DNA of 63,420 nt, filler included, from Collodictyon triciliatum (taxonomy: Eukaryota), in the NCBI GenBank assembly GCA_043381765.1. It is 25 parts of 25 records of this genome, joined end to end, with 100 filler letters (N's around TTAATTAATTAA, not from the genome) between each part and the next. Parts side by side here need not be neighbours in the genome. Positions count along the whole stretch, not along the records: positions 1 to 2,447 come from JBHJMP010008870.1; 24 more parts are not named here. One strand, written 5' to 3'. The translations under genes and the position numbers were made by a program. The first letter of the stretch is position 1. Every line of letters begins with the position of its first letter. The notes beneath the pieces were generated by a model. The model did no database searches and was not told the origin of the DNA. It saw only the letters and a list, made by a program, of their open reading frames with translations. Positions 2 through 22,918 of the stretch are shown here, in pieces.

Positions 2-319
2 AACCGCTTGGGCATATTGACTTGTGTTATATGTACCCTCAGCAATTGTTATTGTTGAAAACGTACTGATACCTGTGTTGGTATTCAATACTCGAATTCG
101 CAATTGATTGTATTGATACAAGTCTGTTATTTGGTGTATCGTCGTGGGGTAGTATACACTTTTTATAAAAAGATTATATGGCTTGTTTTTGATAATTGGG
201 AAATCACTTAAATCAAAGGTGAAATTGTTGTTTGACCCACTCACTCGTTTCGACTCCGAATTAATAAAAAGATAGTTTGCTTCGTTTACGCGTTTTTCAT
301 CTAAAAGTCGTCGTTGCAT
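2..319 (-). CDS. Polinton-like virus minor capsid protein (penton), N-terminal part; truncated at window edge
   Basis: Not in the ORF track; translated by hand from ATG at 319: MQRRLLDEKRVNEANYLFINSESKRVSGSNNNFTFDLSDFPIIKNKPYNLFIKSVYYPTTIHQIT...STITIAEGTYNTSQYAQAV. The pattern (Y-x-x-I/V-N/D-S..SG...F-x-F; S-x-x-x-P; G-x-Y) aligns by eye with ORF 20477-21232 and with PLV penton N-termini. Lies next to the capsid gene. Confidence 0.75.
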   Translation of the reverse strand, partial: MQRRLLDEKRVNEANYLFINSESKRVSGSNNNFTFDLSDFPIIKNKPYNLFIKSVYYPTTIHQITDLYQYNQLRIRVLNTNTGISTFSTITIAEGTYNTSQYAQAV

Positions 320-352
320 ACTTGTGCCAATATTTTTTTCTTTATTAAATTA

Positions 353-736
353 ATGGAGCCCGAATATGAAGAGGAGGACCAATCTTTACCCCAAGCCGTA
401 CCTGAACGAAAAGTCAAACGAACACTAACTGATAAGCAACTAAAAAATTTGGAACTGATGAGACAGAAGAAGATGGCAAAGAAGGAAGCGTCAAAAATGA
501 TTGCGGACTCCGTAAGAAATTCGGCGAGGGAGGCAGATGCCGAGGAATTCTCTAGTCTAAAAAATGAATTAGCGGAGATTAAAAAAAAATTGGCCGCCCC
601 GGAAATATCCAAACCCAAGCCAAAAAAAGCCGCCCCAGTCAAAAGGAAAAGAATTGTTGAACAATCAGATTCAGATGAATACCAGGATGCAGTGGAATAT
701 TCCAACCCTTACCTCATGCAGATAGTTCGAAGATAA
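353..736 (+). CDS. Small virus-associated protein with acidic N-terminus and Lys/Arg-rich core (putative core/DNA-binding protein)
   Basis: Likely ATG at 353 (MEPEYEEED...), containing KVKRTLTDKQLKNLELMRQKK. Lies between the penton and major capsid genes. A homologous motif occurs at 20362-20448. Function is inferred. Confidence 0.65.
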   Translation: MEPEYEEEDQSLPQAVPERKVKRTLTDKQLKNLELMRQKKMAKKEASKMIADSVRNSAREADAEEFSSLKNELAEIKKKLAAPEISKPKPKKAAPVKRKRIVEQSDSDEYQDAVEYSNPYLMQIVRR

Positions 737-766
737 ATTATTTTTTGTTAATGAAAAAATAATTTA
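734..766. terminator. Perfect 13-bp hairpin spanning the two convergent stop codons (putative bidirectional 3'-end/polyadenylation signal)
   Basis: TAAATTATTTTTT-GTTAATG-AAAAAATAATTTA. Arms 734-746 and 754-766 are exact reverse complements; the outer ends of the arms are the TAA stops of the two convergent genes. Confidence 0.65.
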
Positions 767-2446
767 GTAAAGTACCTGGGCATTGTCTTTGCCAATATCC
801 AACACACGAGTGTGCTCGATGATGACCCAGCAGGTGTAGTCATCTACAGGAGTCAATGAAGTAAGATTTGCGGGAACTGGTATATTCCCAGCAGCGGTGG
901 CAGCTGAAGCGTGTTTGCAAGACCCCGCAAACTGTAGACCTACCTGTACAATTCCAGAATTTGAAGATGCGTTATATCCTGACAACTCAAACTCGTCTGA
1001 GTAATCTGACCGAGTCATTGTCCACCCTAACGCAAACAGAGTCGGAGTTTTCCAAAAGAATTCTTCACATTCAAGTGGATTTGTGTTTTTATCAGTTGCT
1101 GTATCTGCCGTTACAATCATAGAATTCTGAACGGCTTTGTTGCTGGCATAATTGACACCTGCGCCTGACCGTGGTGTAGTCAGTTGAATAATTCCACTAT
1201 TCACACCGGCACCAGCATTAATTTGAATTGGTTGAATTGCTTGTTGTGAAAAGTTAACCTGTCCGAGCATTTCAGCTGAGGTGTTATAGCCCAATGCTTT
1301 CATTAAATAGTTCAGAGCTTCAGGTTGATGACACAAAGCTTGACCAATTACTGCACTTGATAAAAATCCAGACGCCGCAGCTGCCGTGCCAAGAGTATTT
1401 TGGCCAGCGGCCGGTACATTGGCATAAGCAGGATTTGCTAGCTGAATAGGAACTGATGGCAATACTTTACCATTGACTGTAAGTCTTGCCTGACTTAGTC
1501 CCTCAATTGCATGCATTCTATCAGTACCTAAATATCCAAGATTACCCTGTTCACAAGCTCGGGTAAAGATAAGATATATAGCATTTATATTTGAGTATTG
1601 AACAGAAATATTTTGTGTAATCCATCCTGTAGTTCTTCTTGGAATATTAAACTGAGTCATAAAATATGTTTCAATTGGAATTTGCAAATTGTTGGAAACC
1701 AAGTATTGAGAAAGCGCATTGTTATAGCTGGGTTCAGTTTGAATATAATTGATATTCATTTTAATATTACTCAGAGTATAACTAAGAGTGCTAGCAGTGC
1801 TAGCAGTCCAATCCAAAAAGTCAAATCCGGTATTTTGGGTATAACTTAATTGACCTTGACTAAAGCACTCTGATGCGGGCGCCATCCAAATACGAATTTC
1901 CAATGAATTGGGACCCAGTAAGTAAGCAGGAAGCAATGTTTTAATATTCATCAACCCCAAGTAACGAAGTGGAAATCCAATTTGAACAGTGTTACTTTCA
2001 GTTCCTGCTGCACCAACTAATAACAATCTGGACCTATCAAGAACAGACTGGCCTATTCCCATTCCACCGGACATAAGATTAACCCAATTTTGGTTATTAC
2101 ACCAATTGTGCTTAAATGTTTCCAAATATGAATAATTGTCGATTCTTTCCAATTCACTTCCATTTAGGTAAACGGCAATTCTATAAATAAAACTTTCGTA
2201 ACTTTCACACGGGCACAGTATTGACAATGCTCTATTCGCTGCTGTAGCTGTGGATGCATCGAACAGACCTCTTTTTAGATTTCCAGCATTTGTAATTGTT
2301 GCGGCATCTAGTCCTTTTACAGTCAGATCCGCTATGATATGAGCACTGTCCATTTGAATGCTCCATTCATTGTCAATTGGAACCCTAAATACAATTTGAG
2401 GACCAGATGAAAAAGTTGCTGTCTGCTCCGTTCCGTTGCTGGGTAA
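764..2446 (-). CDS. Major capsid protein (double jelly-roll), Polinton-like virus type; 5'-truncated by contig end
   Basis: Intron-free. The frame stays open upstream of the listed Met to the contig end (LPSNGTEQTATFSSGPQIVFRVPIDNEWSIQMDSAHIIADL), giving about 560 aa. PLV-MCP-like motifs: SFIYRIAVYLNGSELERIDNYSYL, FPLRYLGLMNIKTLLP...LEIRIWMA, YTLSNIKMNINYI, LTVNGKVLPSVPI, FALG...SGYN, C-terminal VIIEHTRVLDI. Confidence 0.85.
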   Translation of the reverse strand, partial: LPSNGTEQTATFSSGPQIVFRVPIDNEWSIQMDSAHIIADLTVKGLDAATITNAGNLKRGLFDASTATAANRALSILCPCESYESFIYRIAVYLNGSELERIDNYSYLETFKHNWCNNQNWVNLMSGGMGIGQSVLDRSRLLLVGAAGTESNTVQIGFPLRYLGLMNIKTLLPAYLLGPNSLEIRIWMAPASECFSQGQLSYTQNTGFDFLDWTASTASTLSYTLSNIKMNINYIQTEPSYNNALSQYLVSNNLQIPIETYFMTQFNIPRRTTGWITQNISVQYSNINAIYLIFTRACEQGNLGYLGTDRMHAIEGLSQARLTVNGKVLPSVPIQLANPAYANVPAAGQNTLGTAAAASGFLSSAVIGQALCHQPEALNYLMKALGYNTSAEMLGQVNFSQQAIQPIQINAGAGVNSGIIQLTTPRSGAGVNYASNKAVQNSMIVTADTATDKNTNPLECEEFFWKTPTLFALGWTMTRSDYSDEFELSGYNASSNSGIVQVGLQFAGSCKHASAATAAGNIPVPANLTSLTPVDDYTCWVIIEHTRVLDIGKDNAQVLY

Positions 2447-2447
2447 A

Positions 2448-2547: not shown

Positions 2548-4990
2548 GTCTGCTTCACGCGCAAGACCCGCAAAGGCTCTCCACTATGCCGGACGTCGAC
2601 GAAGTCTGCCTCGCACAAGACCCGCAAAGGATCTCCACTATGCCGGACTGCGACGAAGTCTGCCTCACACAAGACCCACAAAGGCTGTGCGTTATGCCGG
2701 ACTGCGACGAAGTCTGCTTCACGCGCAAGACCCGCAAAGGCTCTCCACTATGCCGGACGTCGACGAAGTCTGCCTCGCACAAGACCCGCAAAGGATCTCC
2801 ACTATGCCGGACTGCAACGAAGTCTGCCTCACACAAGACCTACAAAGGCTGTGCTTTATGCCGAACGTCGACGAAGTCTGCTTCATACAAGACCCACGAA
2901 GGATCTGCACTATGCCGGACGTCGACAAAGTCTGCTTCACACAAGACCCGCAAAGGATCTCCGCTGTGCCGAACGTCGACGAAGTCTGCCTCGCACAAGA
3001 CCCGCAAAGGCTCTTCGCTATGCCGGAATACGACGAAGTCTGCTTCACAAAAGACCCACAAAGGCTGTGCGTTATGCCGGACTGCGACGAAGTCTGCTTC
3101 ATACAAGACCTACAAAGGCTCTCCGCTGTGCCGAACGTCGACGAAGTCTGCTTCACACACGACCCGCGAAGGCTCTGCGTTATGCCCGAATATGACGAAG
3201 TCTGCCTCACACAAGACCCACAAAGGCTGTGCGTTATGCCGAACGTCGACGAAGTCTGCCTCCACACAAGACCCGCAAAGGCTCTCCACTATGGCGGAAT
3301 ACGACGAAGTCTGCTTCACACAAGACCCACAAAGGCTCTCCACTATGCCGGACATCGACGCAGTCTGCTCCACCCAAGACCCACAAAGGATCTCCACTAT
3401 GCCGAACGTCGACGAAGTCTGCTCCACCCAAGACCCACAAAGGCTCCCCATTATGCCGAACGTCGAAGAAGTCTGCTCCACACAAGACCCGCTAAGGCTT
3501 CCCTCTATGCCGGACTGCGACGAAGTCTGCTTCACGCAAGACCCACAAAGGGTCTGCACTATGCTGAACGTCGACGAAGTCTGCTCCACACAAGACCCAC
3601 AAAGGCTGTGCACTATGCCAGGATGTGACGATGTCTGCTTCACACAAGACCCGCAAAGGCTCTTCGCTATGCCGAACGTCGACGAAGTCTGCTCCACATA
3701 AGACCCACAAAGGATCTCCACTATGCCGAACGTCGACGACGTCTGCTTCACACAGGACCCACAAAGGCTCTGCGCTATGCCGGACGTCGACAAAGTCTGC
3801 TTCACACAAGACCCGCAAAGGATCTCCACTATGCCGAACGTCGACGAAGTCTGCTTCACACAAGACCCGCAAAGGATCTCCACTATGCCGGACGTCGACA
3901 AAGTCTGCCTCGCACAAGACCCGCAAAGGCTCTTCGCTATGCCGGAATACGACGAAGTCTGCCTCACACAAGACCCACAAAGGCTGTGCGTTATGCCGAA
4001 CGTCGACGAAGTCTGCACCACGCAAGACCCACAAAGGCTGTGCGTTATGCCGAACTGCGACGAAGTCTGCTTCACACAAGACCCACGAAGGCTCTCCACT
4101 ATGCCGAACGTCGACGAAGTCTGCCTCACACACAACCCGCAAAGGCTCTGCACTATGCCGAACGTCGACGGAGCGTTTCACACACACTAAGAACCGCAAA
4201 GGCTCAGTACTATGCCAGAATACGAAAACCGTAAGTCTCGCGAAATCAAAAATTCTAATTTAACTTCGCAACAAGCACTTTGATTTGTGCAAGCATACAT
4301 TTAGTCGATGTTTTTGTTATAATTCGTATGGAAGTAGTCCATTCATGCTTAAAGGAGAATAATAGAATTTCTCTTGCCAAAAATAGCGCAGTCTGTGTCC
4401 GGCTATGGAGAACACTCGAAGCCCAATAACCTGTTTATCAAACGACGGAGTCTGCCTCACACAAGACCCGCAAAGGCTCCATTATGCCGGAATGTGACGA
4501 GGTCTGCTTCATACACAAGACCCGCAAAGGTTCTCTGCTATGCCGAACGCCGATAAGTCTGCTTCACACATATGCAAGCAAGGCTCTCCACTATGCCAGA
4601 ATACGAAAACTGTAAGTCTCGTTAAATCAAAAATTCTATTTTTAGCTTCACTTCGAGCACTTTGTTTTGTGCAAGCACACACTTAACAGATGTTTTTGTC
4701 ATAATTCATATGGAAGAATTTTTACCATAAAGGTGGAAAAATTGAATTTCTCCTGTCAAAAATAGGACGGTCTGCGTCGGGTTATGTGGAATATTTGAAG
4801 CCAAATTACCTGTTTATGAAACGACAAAGTGCTTCGCACACTGAGACCCGCAAAGGCTCTGCGCTATGCCGGAATACGACGATGTCTGCTTCACACACTA
4901 AGAACCCAAGAATACTCCACTATGCTGGAATGTGGCGAAATGTGCTTCACACACAAAACGCAGAAAGACATCAAACTATGCTGGAATACG
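2548..4990 (+). repeat. 54-bp tandem satellite (~30 units, 2548-~4170) followed by higher-order units (~220-bp AT-rich block plus a few 54-mers)
   Basis: Unit approximately GAAGTCTGCTTCACACAAGACCCGCAAAGGCTCTCCACTATGCCGGACGTCGAC, giving 18-aa periodicity in the spurious ORFs. AT-rich blocks start AATACGAAAAC at ~4219 and ~4599. Confidence 0.95.
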
Positions 4991-7282: not shown

Positions 7283-7493
7283 GGTCAATAATTATAGTAT
7301 TATTTCAAGAGGACATGTACATAAAGAGAGGCGAGTAGAAAGGAAGGGAAGGGAAATATCCGGCTTGTACAATGGAGATGGGCATATACTTTAAGGAGAC
7401 AAATAATAGCAAGGAGCTCAGTTTATGATAATAAAGGAACATGTCTACAATTTGAGTTTAAAAGTAACAGGTGTTTCCTGTTTGACCTTCTGA

Positions 7494-7723: not shown

Positions 7724-7805
<82 letters not shown>

Positions 7806-8232
7806 TTTTTTTTTTTTTTTTATTTTTATTTTTATTTTTATTTTTATTTTTATTTTTATTTTTATTTTTATTTTTATTTTTATTTTTATTTTTATTTTTA
7901 TTTTTATTTTTATTTTTATTTTTATTTTAAACGCCCACACATCCCAAAAGAAGACACTCGGATAAAAACCTTCAAAGAATCGGTCTTTCCTTTGTTTAAG
8001 TTCCGATCAAATCCTGCAGCACAAAATCAGCGCTGATCGGAGCAGAAGAAAAGGTGGGCAAGCAAGCAAGCAAGCAAGCAAGCCTTCTCCACATAAGGTC
8101 AGAAGTGCGGCGGCAAAGCTGGAATGCCCACCTTTTCCCCTGCTGGTGGATACTTGAGGCCACCTTCCTGTGCGTGTGTGTTGTGTTGTGTGAATGTGGG
8201 GAATATTAAGGCTTCGATGCAGGGAGTCGAGG

Positions 8233-9505
8233 ATGAAGAGCTTCAAAAAGTTGATTGGCCAGGAGGAAGAGCAAAACACGGTGGAGGAGCTTGACGACTG
8301 CATCACCCTGTCTTTCCAGCAGGTTTTCCACAAAGCTGCCATATTTGTCTTAGATTTAACCCCCTCCCTTTTCCTCATTCTGCCTAAGTGTTGCTTGCAA
8401 CTTCCAGCTTGTTTTCATCGCTGCAAAGTATCGACACATTCTATTTTCCTTCTTCATCTCTTTCTTTTTGTGTAGCGCATGATCTGCTTCTCAGCCTGCT
8501 TTGTCGTTGGAATCATTGTTAGTTTCATGGTATGTCTATCAAATCTTTTCTATATTTCTATAAGGTGAAACGTACTCGCCCATTCATGTGTATGAGCCTA
8601 TGCGTTATCCGTTTAAGTTTTAATTACTTTTTGAAAGGCATTCGTCAACTTTGCTGATTTAACCAAATTTGCTGTCTTCTACTCCATCGGCAACATTATT
8701 GCTCTTTGCAGGTTTGTAGATTGTTAAAAAAAAAAAATATCCGTCAAAGCGCAAAACACTCTCCTTTTTTTTCTTTCTTTCTATGACGCATGAAACACAA
8801 CAAAGCATAGGACATTTGTTCCCAGAACCCTAGCAAAATAGCTCTTAACACCTTTGATTTTCTTCACTTTTCCTTATTATTTACTTCAAGGAAGCAACAA
8901 TGATAATAACCAACCCGCTATACTTATACCAGCACGATGTTCTTGATGGGCCCGTGGAAACAGGTCAAGAAGATGTTTGACCCCGACCGCGTAATTGCGA
9001 CTGTGGTTTATCTGGTCACAATCTTCTTCACTTTGTTCTTTGCTCTCTACGTGAGTTCTTTTTTTTTATTTCTCGTCAGGCGATTAAAATTTCATTTTTC
9101 GTTCCAATCGTTTGAAATAATATTCATGTCCCTCATTTTCTAAGCTTGGGTATTTATATGACATATTCAGCTGAAAAATGCGGCGCTTACTGTGATTGCC
9201 ATGCTTTGCCAATTTGTTGCGCTTATCTGGTATTCAACTTGCAAAATTCAATCATAAAACATACATTTCCCATAGTCCAACCGACAAATACAACCCGCAA
9301 TTTCCGATTGATGACCAACAAATATAACTATCCTATTCTCCAATTCTTTTCCCTATTTAATCATGCATTTTCTCTTGTTTATTTTGCCTTGAGCTCCCAC
9401 CTTTTTCATTTAATGCCAACTTCGTTTTTTTTTTCTAGGTACGCCTTGTCCTACATCCCGTTTGCTCGCAAAGCAATCAAGAAGTTTTGCACCAGCCTAG
9501 TCTAA
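8233..9505 (+). CDS. SFT2: Vesicle transport protein SFT2 (Got1/Sft2 family), 6 exons, apparently complete
   Basis: LSFQQ/RMICFSACF, FAVFYSIGNIIALC, STMFLMGPWKQVKKMFDPDRVIAT, CQFVALIW/YALSYIPFARKAIKK-stop. Confidence 0.9.
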
Positions 9506-22659: not shown

Positions 22660-22918
22660 ATAAATAGCCTGCGAAAGATTCTTGATAGGTGTTCCAAAGA
22701 CACGCTCTGTGACAGGCCCGTAAGATTTGCGGCCAAATGCACCGGAGCTGACAAAGAACTGGGCGTCTCTGGCCGAGCCGAATGCGCGCTTCTGGCCCCC
22801 GCCGTNNNNNNNNNNNNNNNNNNNNNNNNNNNNNNNNNNNNNNNNNNNNTTAATTAATTAANNNNNNNNNNNNNNNNNNNNNNNNNNNNNNNNNNNNNNN
22901 NNNNNGTTTGTGTGTTTG

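Follow-up and report, generated by a model that had tools for sequence, protein, structure and literature searches.

Hairpins that mark the ends of genes have been described for Mimiviridae, Sputnik, transpovirons, Marseilleviridae, and Pithovirus. In Mimiviridae they form the polyadenylation signal known as the hairpin rule (Byrne et al. 2009, as described in PMC4402537, PMC3542560, and PMC6163669); hairpins follow 78% of the genes in moumouvirus (PMC3542560) and 16 genes in Sputnik (PMC6723459). Here we describe a palindrome of related design at positions 734 to 766 of a 63,420-nt stretch of DNA from the Collodictyon triciliatum assembly GCA_043381765.1 (hereafter, the window). It lies on the first contig of the window (contig 1), between the major capsid protein gene of an element that fits a polinton-like virus (PLV) and a small gene that converges on it. 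A literature search and term look-ups, including PMC7805220 and PMC12220804, found no report of gene-end hairpins in PLVs in the text covered, supplements being outside the search. How PLVs are transcribed bears on whether these elements are independent nuclear viruses or parasites of giant viruses, and hence on a possible role in host defence.

The locus carries a single symmetric Watson-Crick palindrome of 13 perfect pairs, all of them A-T, with a 7-nt loop. It spans the convergent gap, and both strands fold into a hairpin. The 27-nt gap plus the two stop codons is exactly the hairpin, which opens with the TAA of the small gene (734 to 736, plus strand) and closes with the TAA of the capsid gene (read from 766 to 764, minus strand). 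The sequence and the open reading frame (ORF) coordinates confirm what the first-pass annotation of the window had claimed, namely, a perfect 13-bp inverted repeat with a 7-nt loop bounded by both TAA codons. Bacterial bidirectional intrinsic terminators, which act on bacterial polymerase and are shared by convergent genes, have G+C-rich stems and flanking U-runs. The locus is like them in that one palindrome fills a convergent gap, contains both stops, and would serve both strands, and unlike them in that its stem is all A-T and lies in a eukaryotic virus; a scan for bacterial promoters and terminators returned nothing at 734 to 766.

The explanation that we favor, with moderate confidence, is that the palindrome is a two-way, structure-based transcript-end signal common to two convergent PLV genes and located where gene blocks meet. 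Each facing gene would be transcribed through its own stop codon into the palindrome, and the nascent RNA would fold into a 12- to 13-bp A-U hairpin whose first three bases are the stop codon of that gene. It would be the structure, rather than a fixed sequence, that sets the point at which a transcript terminates or is cleaved and tailed. As the palindrome reads the same on both strands, one copy could serve both genes, halting each polymerase before it enters the other gene in antisense. Rather than following every gene, such signals would occupy the tail-to-tail boundaries between blocks of co-oriented genes, and the genes within a block would probably share a downstream end. We infer that the signal acts in RNA, that transcripts end at the palindrome, and that tandem genes are 3'-coterminal.

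The palindrome is not a random product of base composition. A perfect stem of at least 13 bp was reached in 6 of 20,000 dinucleotide-preserving shuffles of the 45-nt junction and in none of 300 shuffles of the whole contig (2,447 nt), for which the maximum was 12. With plain T-run/A-run pairs set aside, it is the longest perfect hairpin among all 25 contigs of the window. The first-pass annotation had held the palindrome to be more than chance despite a caveat about AT-rich DNA, and both sets of shuffles bear this out.

Relatives of the capsid gene were found in 12 metagenome loci (L001 to L012), and the gene order around the hairpin (capsid gene, convergent small gene, divergent gene of ~291 aa) is kept. 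In L002, L004, L006, and L008, whose capsid proteins are 58 to 69% identical to that of contig 1 (tblastn), the arms TAAATTATTTTT/AAAAATAATTTA are identical over 12 bp, both stops remain in the stem, and there are four different loops of 7 to 9 nt. In L001 the capsid stop lies 13 nt upstream and the three outer pairs are lost; three new inner pairs (GTT/AAC) restore a 13-bp stem. The distant relatives L007, L009, and L010, with 33 to 36% capsid identity, carry palindromes of unrelated sequence. At the same junction in L007, AATTCAATAAATAC/GTATTTATTAAATT form 13 pairs, which none of 200 shuffles reached. Convergent gene ends in L009 (positions 14943 to 14976) hold 12 pairs and those in L010 (1876 to 1913) hold 14 to 15 pairs, each reached by 2 of 200 shuffles. 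Unrelated palindromes in distant relatives mean that structure and place are kept while the sequence turns over. A hairpin downstream of the stop is therefore conserved as a structure and not as a sequence, as is characteristic of the hairpin rule. By eye, three of the four mismatches in imperfect palindromes are of the transition type (G-U on one strand), too few to mean anything.

Two further loci have repeats at or near gene boundaries. At the capsid stop of L011, 4.1 perfect copies of a 32-nt tandem repeat (4826 to 4955) replace the single palindrome. In L012, two perfect CAT...ATG palindromes (1812 to 1837 and 2114 to 2140), each reached by 1 of 200 shuffles, terminate in the start codon of the gene that follows. 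L012 is a PLV fragment in which all genes are in tandem, and its lineage may place hairpins between tandem genes.

To compare junction types, ORFs of at least 70 aa were called in 13 sources (L001, L002, L004 to L012, contig 1, and contig 9 of the window), L003 being left out as a near-copy of L002. At each of the 48 junctions the best hairpin (at most one mismatch, loop of 3 to 15 nt) was compared with those of 200 dinucleotide-preserving shuffles, and a junction was scored positive if at most 10 of the 200 did as well. Hairpins were present at 9/11 convergent junctions, 4/30 tandem junctions, and 1/7 divergent junctions (Fisher's test, convergent versus tandem, p = 9e-5). The two convergent misses are overlapping ORF pairs without a gap. 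Hairpins of at least 11 pairs with at most one mismatch numbered 10 in the 700 nt of convergent gaps, or 14.3 per kb; the corresponding densities were 1.56 per kb for tandem gaps, 1.78 for divergent gaps, and 0.14 for coding sequence. The hairpin count against shuffles that the first-pass annotation had proposed, made here over partial relatives, thus shows enrichment at convergent junctions and hairpins at few tandem ones.

That the palindrome is chance or neutral, whether simply an AT-rich inverted repeat or a member of a dispersed palindromic repeat family, is extremely improbable in view of these counts. AT-only 12-bp palindromes are common in viral contig collections, as seen from two scrambled palindromes of the same composition that match 22 and 40 IMG/VR loci, and the fold of the plus strand is unremarkable (see below). 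Against chance stand the rarity of the observed stem among shuffles, its retention at the same junction in six relatives, its re-formation in L001, and a density ~100-fold higher in convergent gaps than in coding sequence; the two palindromes of the window also differ, and the loci contain no further copies except for a promoter-like box. A mobile dispersed palindrome, of the kind of repetitive extragenic palindromes or miniature inverted-repeat transposable elements, was ruled out by the orthologous junction, the differing palindromes of the window, and the lack of other copies in the loci.

As a positive control, the same junction test was applied to IMG/VR virophage contigs with a Sputnik-type capsid gene (L091, L094, and L095). 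L091 has hairpins at 10/14 tandem junctions; three of the ten share a repeated sequence, and an overlapping ORF call hid an eleventh from the test. The difference from the 4/30 tandem junctions of the PLV lineage (p = 2.5e-4) indicates that the test is able to detect a per-gene rule and that the PLV lineage lacks it. Hairpins are few in L094 and L095, so the trait varies among virophage contigs. In L091, an identical 12-bp hairpin follows three successive tandem genes ~460 nt apart (7335 to 7365, 7800 to 7830, and 8262 to 8292), which suggests a triplicated gene-plus-hairpin module.

The palindrome is like those of Mimiviridae in being AT-rich, lying just 3' of the stop, being defined by its structure, and having a position conserved between relatives. 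In Mimiviridae hairpins follow most genes, whereas in the PLV lineage they are mainly at convergent junctions. For Mimiviridae, the enzymes involved (the RNase III-like R343 and the poly(A) polymerase of the virus) have been shown, as has polyadenylation within the hairpin, whereas the PLV signal is known here from sequence. Finally, the promoter AAAATTGA accompanies hairpins in Mimiviridae and was found upstream of 0/66 genes of the PLV lineage. Sputnik and the transpovirons (PMC6723459, PMC7031253) provide a second parallel, as small capsid-encoding or plasmid-like elements with gene-end hairpins, from which, as from virophage L091, the PLV lineage differs in having no tandem hairpin pattern. 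In Marseilleviridae, palindromes are enriched between ORFs and tied to upstream stops, and one poly(A) site was mapped in a hairpin (PMC5413956); these are large viruses with their own RNase III, and according to the same paper the enrichment there is regardless of the orientation of the downstream gene.

The first-pass annotation had read the palindrome as a Mimivirus-type hairpin-rule signal. The structural palindrome after the stop stands; the per-gene frequency and the promoter motif do not. The corresponding mechanism, a subset of the explanation that we favor, would have the polymerase of a helper giant virus transcribe the element, an RNase III-like enzyme nick the hairpin, and the poly(A) polymerase of the helper add the tail, making the PLV a virophage-like parasite. 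We consider this rather unlikely. In its favor, the gene-end palindromes keep a structure while varying in sequence, as in Mimiviridae (PMC4402537), and similar hairpins occur in Sputnik (PMC6723459) and transpovirons (PMC7031253). Very short leaders and a position-fixed TTTTCT box (see below) resemble the TCTA late promoters of virophages (PMC8547959), and all PLVs and virophages cultured so far are reported to depend on Imitervirales (10.64898/2026.09.29.755237). A related ATPase-bearing contig, L013, is filed in IMG/VR under the name of a giant-virus bin, which shows co-binning only. Opposed to it are the failure of a per-gene rule that virophage L091 follows, the missing AAAATTGA promoter, and TCTA, which is not enriched (20/66 genes, against a background of ~0.25 per 60 nt); TCTA is the late motif of Cafeteria roenbergensis virus (CroV) and mavirus (PMC8547959, PMC13196603). 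A Pfam scan of 40 ORFs of the window, a small sample, found no giant-virus marker, and no poly(A) run was seen at the ends of RNA contigs.

The exact arms of the palindrome were found in 15 IMG/VR loci, several of them giant-virus-like contigs. Sharing of the palindrome was discarded as evidence of a link to virophages or to nucleocytoplasmic large DNA viruses (NCLDVs), since the scrambled controls match more loci (22 and 40, versus 15), many of them in giant-virus bins; such sharing is expected from the abundance of AT-rich palindromes in these genomes.

Upstream regions of the PLV lineage contain a promoter-like box, TTTTCT(A/T), located 15 to 16 nt before start codons in L001 to L012 (0/13 in L013). 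TTTTCT was found in 19/53 upstream 40-nt stretches, compared with 2.4 expected, and TTTCT in 23/53, whereas 500 shuffles averaged 4.8 and never exceeded 11. Of 24 matches, 14 have the first base of the TTTCT core at -15 or -16. This compact box at a fixed distance resembles the promoters of virus factories in layout, and it matches no described helper motif among those compared. Together, a structural gene-end signal and a fixed-position upstream box provide two sequence handles that can be searched for in candidate helper viruses. Hairpins after nearly every gene, as in the Sputnik-type virophage contig, versus hairpins at convergent junctions only, as in the PLV lineage, could likewise be used to sort uncultured elements by expression strategy.

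Several observations weigh against a structure-based transcript-end signal. The predicted fold of the plus strand (73 nt; -11.8 kcal/mol, z = -1.55) was matched by 16/200 shuffles, and that of the minus strand (-11.3 kcal/mol, z = -3.76) by 0/200; the stem is weak, and the modest folding-energy signal follows from its being all A-T. Of the nine positive convergent junctions, six are copies of a single ancestral one. With L013 added, the counts become 9/14 convergent, 5/39 tandem, and 1/9 divergent junctions, and none of the three convergent junctions of L013 is positive (best, 21/200), so the rule is not general in PLVs. With the copies collapsed and contig 9 included, the comparison is 5/10 convergent versus 5/39 tandem junctions (p = 0.02).

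The RNA contigs bear on such a signal in both directions. They are assembled metatranscriptome contigs of relatives 85 to 99% alike, from three runs in two studies (X18 and X19 from one and X20 from the other); assembled contigs cannot show strand or transcript ends, and DNA may be present in the libraries. Contigs of the small gene stop at position 727 (X18, X19), those of the capsid gene at 782 to 784 (X19, X20), and those of the third, divergent gene at 299 or 306. Each stop directly abuts library adapter, which we take to be Illumina adapter; the stops of the small and capsid genes thereby mark either flank of the hairpin. The stops lie 3 to 7 and 16 to 18 nt short of the hairpin and before the stop codons, so a model in which transcripts end inside the hairpin needs an assumed loss of the last RNA bases during library making. 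One low-depth X20 contig (532 to 758) ends inside the 3' arm, and one contig of run X16, which is probably DNA, is unbroken over 1 to 844. Positions 307 to 433 and 728 to 781 are without RNA-contig cover and were not counted as evidence of absence. If the libraries are assumed to be stranded dUTP libraries, the adapter types fit the sense 3' ends of both convergent genes and the 5' end of the third gene. The contigs give a weak hint that separate transcripts end beside the hairpin.

The remaining adverse points concern sequence. Within the close clade the arms are invariant, so there is no compensatory change, and a signal in the linear sequence or a protein site could explain their conservation just as well. 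The 10-mer AAATTATTTT, present within both arms (735 to 744 and 756 to 765), occurs 24 times in 122,166 nt, both strands counted. Eleven occurrences are arms of the palindrome downstream of the capsid gene, one is on contig 9, and four are in coding sequence. Eight lie 12 to 15 nt before an ATG, seven of them that of the capsid gene, including capsids only 33 to 40% identical; in these seven relatives the spacing to the capsid ATG is 12 to 13 nt (Table 1). From this distribution, the arms are the upstream box of the capsid gene minus its TCT. The link may reflect binding of one factor at the start and the end of the capsid unit; alternatively, AAATTATTTT may be a linear gene-end box after the stops of three genes or an AT-rich coincidence. 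A further adverse point is that AATAAA, ATTAAA, or AATAAT is found at 18/22 convergent gene ends versus 8/30 tandem ones, a hexamer of this kind being present in 0.22 of random 60-nt stretches. AT-only palindromes hold such hexamers by composition, so the hexamers neither support nor exclude a host-type signal.

These features could be accounted for if the palindrome were the by-product of two back-to-back linear signals, either a U-rich or AAATTATTTT-type box after each stop or an AAUAAA-like poly(A) hexamer read by the nuclear machinery of the host, with pairing irrelevant. We regard this as unlikely. Invariant arms around variable loops would fit it, as would the hexamers at convergent ends, and in seven relatives AAATTATTTT follows the stop of the small upstream gene (in the penton position), where this gene and the capsid gene meet in tandem. 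There are also precedents in the T-rich linear 3' motif of pacmanvirus (PMC11788076) and the poly-U signals of poxviruses (PMC4402537), which the palindrome resembles in that its 5' arm is a T-run preceded by AAATTA after the stop, on either strand. Linear T-rich signals need no partner arm, however, and in the PLV lineage the matching arm is always present and was rebuilt in a new register in L001. The distant relatives retain a palindrome without a common word, the T-rich arm being the 3' one in L007 and the 5' one in the window, and loop length varies from 7 to 9 nt. By our estimate AT-only palindromes of this length contain the hexamers by composition, and tandem ends are without them (8/30, approximately background). 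That tandem ends are without both candidate signals fits co-oriented gene blocks sharing one downstream end.

Invariant half-sites with a variable spacer, and arms equal to the promoter-like 10-mer of the capsid gene, would also be compatible with a site that acts at the level of DNA: a site for a dimeric protein, a cruciform for replication, packaging, or recombination, or inverted promoter-like boxes, with the convergent gap merely being free space. Terminal palindromes with a proposed role in replication are reported in other PLVs and virophages (10.64898/2026.07.28.741278); as described there, they were searched for at 20 nt or longer and lie within terminal repeats, not between genes. We consider a DNA-level site very improbable. 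There are several different palindromes per element, always at gene ends; the spacer varies in length, as that of a dimer site seldom does; and arms acting as promoters would be oriented antisense to both genes. That an element has several palindromes differing in sequence (contigs 1 and 9; L009) is easier to reconcile with a transcription signal than with one origin or packaging site.

An extension of the transcript-end signal would have the whole lineage expressed by cytoplasmic machinery of the helper-virus type, with TTTTCT boxes at -15/-16, hairpin ends only where blocks meet, and nested 3'-coterminal messages. As AAATTATTTT occurs once before the start and twice, inverted, as the arms, it would bracket the capsid unit, and one factor would recognize both the start and the end of this late unit. 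We consider this combination decidedly unlikely.

The identity of the element as a PLV, claimed in the first-pass annotation, is supported by the predicted fold of the capsid protein and by the genes found in relatives. The capsid ORF has 23 relatives of ~588 aa and no Pfam family. An AlphaFold2 model built on the alignment of the relatives (pLDDT, 68.6; pTM, 0.73) matches, in Foldseek, the double jelly-roll capsid proteins of NCLDVs, mavirus, Qinghai Lake virophage, and an adintovirus (E values, 7e-14 to 1e-7). According to this model the capsid gene product is a double jelly-roll protein, and the closest Atlas clusters are Preplasmiviricota and NCLDV capsid. A PDB sequence search with the capsid alignment gave no meaningful match. 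In the relatives, a small gene without a family and a Pox_A32 ATPase gene (L005, L007, L009, L011, L012) precede the capsid gene; a DUF5906/VapE primase-helicase is present in L005 and L012, and L009 has a weak match to an rve integrase, scoring under the Pfam cutoff. These genes, which make up the set expected of a PLV, were seen in the relatives only; contig 1 is cut before them. A PLV genome measures about 14 to 40 kb and has terminal repeats, whether free or integrated; the contigs of the window are 2.4 kb, and the longest relative, L009, is 15.6 kb. The predicted fold and the genes of the relatives together fit a capsid-encoding PLV fragment.

Freshwater and other aquatic metagenomes from 10 studies contain the sequence of contig 1 or close relatives. 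Neither the single capsid protein nor the alignment retrieved a capsid relative from IMG/VR. The promoter-plus-start pattern matched at least 120 IMG/VR loci; in the 80 loci screened, 22 of the 82 matches headed an ORF of at least 150 aa, and none of these 22 is a capsid relative. An IMG/VR search with the ATPase alignment returned one locus, L013.

The window is not one locus. It consists of 25 unrelated contigs of 2,434 to 2,449 bases, ordered by size and separated by N44-TTAATTAATTAA-N44 spacers, and therefore does not show a PLV lying within a host genome. The share covered by long ORFs is 97% for contig 1 (1 to 2447), 88% for contig 9 (20362 to 22805), and 0 to 72% for the other 23 contigs. 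Contigs 1 and 9 look like the sole viral ones among the 25. The other 23 look like intron-rich eukaryotic DNA, and pieces of eukaryotic genes on them include Rpc34, a tyrosine phosphatase, ankyrin repeats, a GT92 glycosyltransferase, and EMP70. Pfam and PHROGs gave no family for the ORFs of the two viral contigs, and an Rfam scan of contig 1 at E values up to 1 matched no family.

The first-pass annotation had also mentioned recurrence of the feature on a second viral contig, and a palindrome of the same stop-to-stop design is indeed present on contig 9 (Table 1). Its stem counts 9 perfect pairs, or 14 if one mismatch is allowed (loop of 3 nt); none of 2,000 shuffles reached 14. The 460-aa protein whose stop opens it is weakly similar (33% over 94 aa; E value, 2.6e-8) to the product of a gene two places beyond the capsid gene in L002/L003, and contig 9 probably belongs to the same kind of element as contig 1. 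The frame converging on the 460-aa gene is one that we infer to be a gene.

Of the contig 1 genes, the small one evolves rapidly, with 31 to 95% identity to the genes in the same position in L001, L002, L004, L006, and L008. The divergent gene is 87 to 90% identical to L002 2797..3672 and L004 2343..2966 and 45 to 48% identical to the genes in the same place in L007 and L009. In the gap between these two genes, TTTTTTTCT is a promoter-like box whose TTTCT core starts 16 nt before the ATG of the small gene. The capsid gene is cut by the contig end; judged by relatives of ~588 aa, its product is missing roughly 28 N-terminal residues.

Table 1. Coordinates of genes, palindromes, and boxes on the two viral contigs (positions in the window) and of the 10-mer before capsid genes (positions in each locus)
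Feature	Sequence	Position	Strand	Remarks
Gene of ~291 aa, first 106 codons	Contig 1	2..319	-	Runs off contig; divergent from 127-aa gene
Divergent gap, 33 nt	Contig 1	320..352		Kept in relatives; TTTTTTTCT at 333-341
Small charged 127-aa gene	Contig 1	353..736	+	Convergent with capsid gene; no Pfam/PHROG family
5' arm TAAATTATTTTTT	Contig 1	734..746		Begins with the TAA stop of the 127-aa gene
Loop GTTAATG, 7 nt	Contig 1	747..753		Between the arms
3' arm AAAAAATAATTTA	Contig 1	754..766		Last three bases are the reverse-strand TAA of the capsid gene
Major capsid protein gene, predicted double jelly-roll	Contig 1	764..2447	-	ORF 764..2353, 529 aa from first ATG; open to contig end
251-aa gene	Contig 9	20477..21232	+	Tandem with 460-aa gene; 14-nt gap without hairpin
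460-aa gene	Contig 9	21247..22629	+	Its stop opens the contig 9 palindrome
Second palindrome TAAACAATT..AATTGTTTA	Contig 9	22627..22659		Bounded by TAA and reverse TAA
Convergent frame, last 49 codons	Contig 9	22657..22805	-	Open to contig end; its stop closes the contig 9 palindrome
AAATTATTTT before capsid ATG	L001	559-568		
AAATTATTTT before capsid ATG	L002	420-429		
AAATTATTTT before capsid ATG	L004	108-117		
AAATTATTTT before capsid ATG	L005	3653-3662		
AAATTATTTT before capsid ATG	L006	183-192		
AAATTATTTT before capsid ATG	L011	3108-3117		
AAATTATTTT before capsid ATG	L012	5859-5868		

Most of contig 2 is occupied by a 54-nt tandem repeat (2548 to 4184; 30 copies, 83% match), and the long ORFs within it are probably artefacts of the repeat.

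Some of the IMG/VR loci with the same arms have them at defined places relative to genes. In the virophage contigs L016 (221 to 251) and L018 (2001 to 2031), the same 12-nt arms are located ~39 nt after a Sputnik-type capsid gene, and in L020 (2001 to 2030), a 65-kb NCLDV contig, they are located ~70 nt after an NCLDV capsid gene. In four contigs of 16 to 23 kb (L019, L022, L023, and L026; 2001 to 2032), the arms are flanked by a 132-aa gene, which has its stop within the arm, and by a gene of 643 to 664 aa without a Pfam family; these contigs may represent another small capsid-type element.

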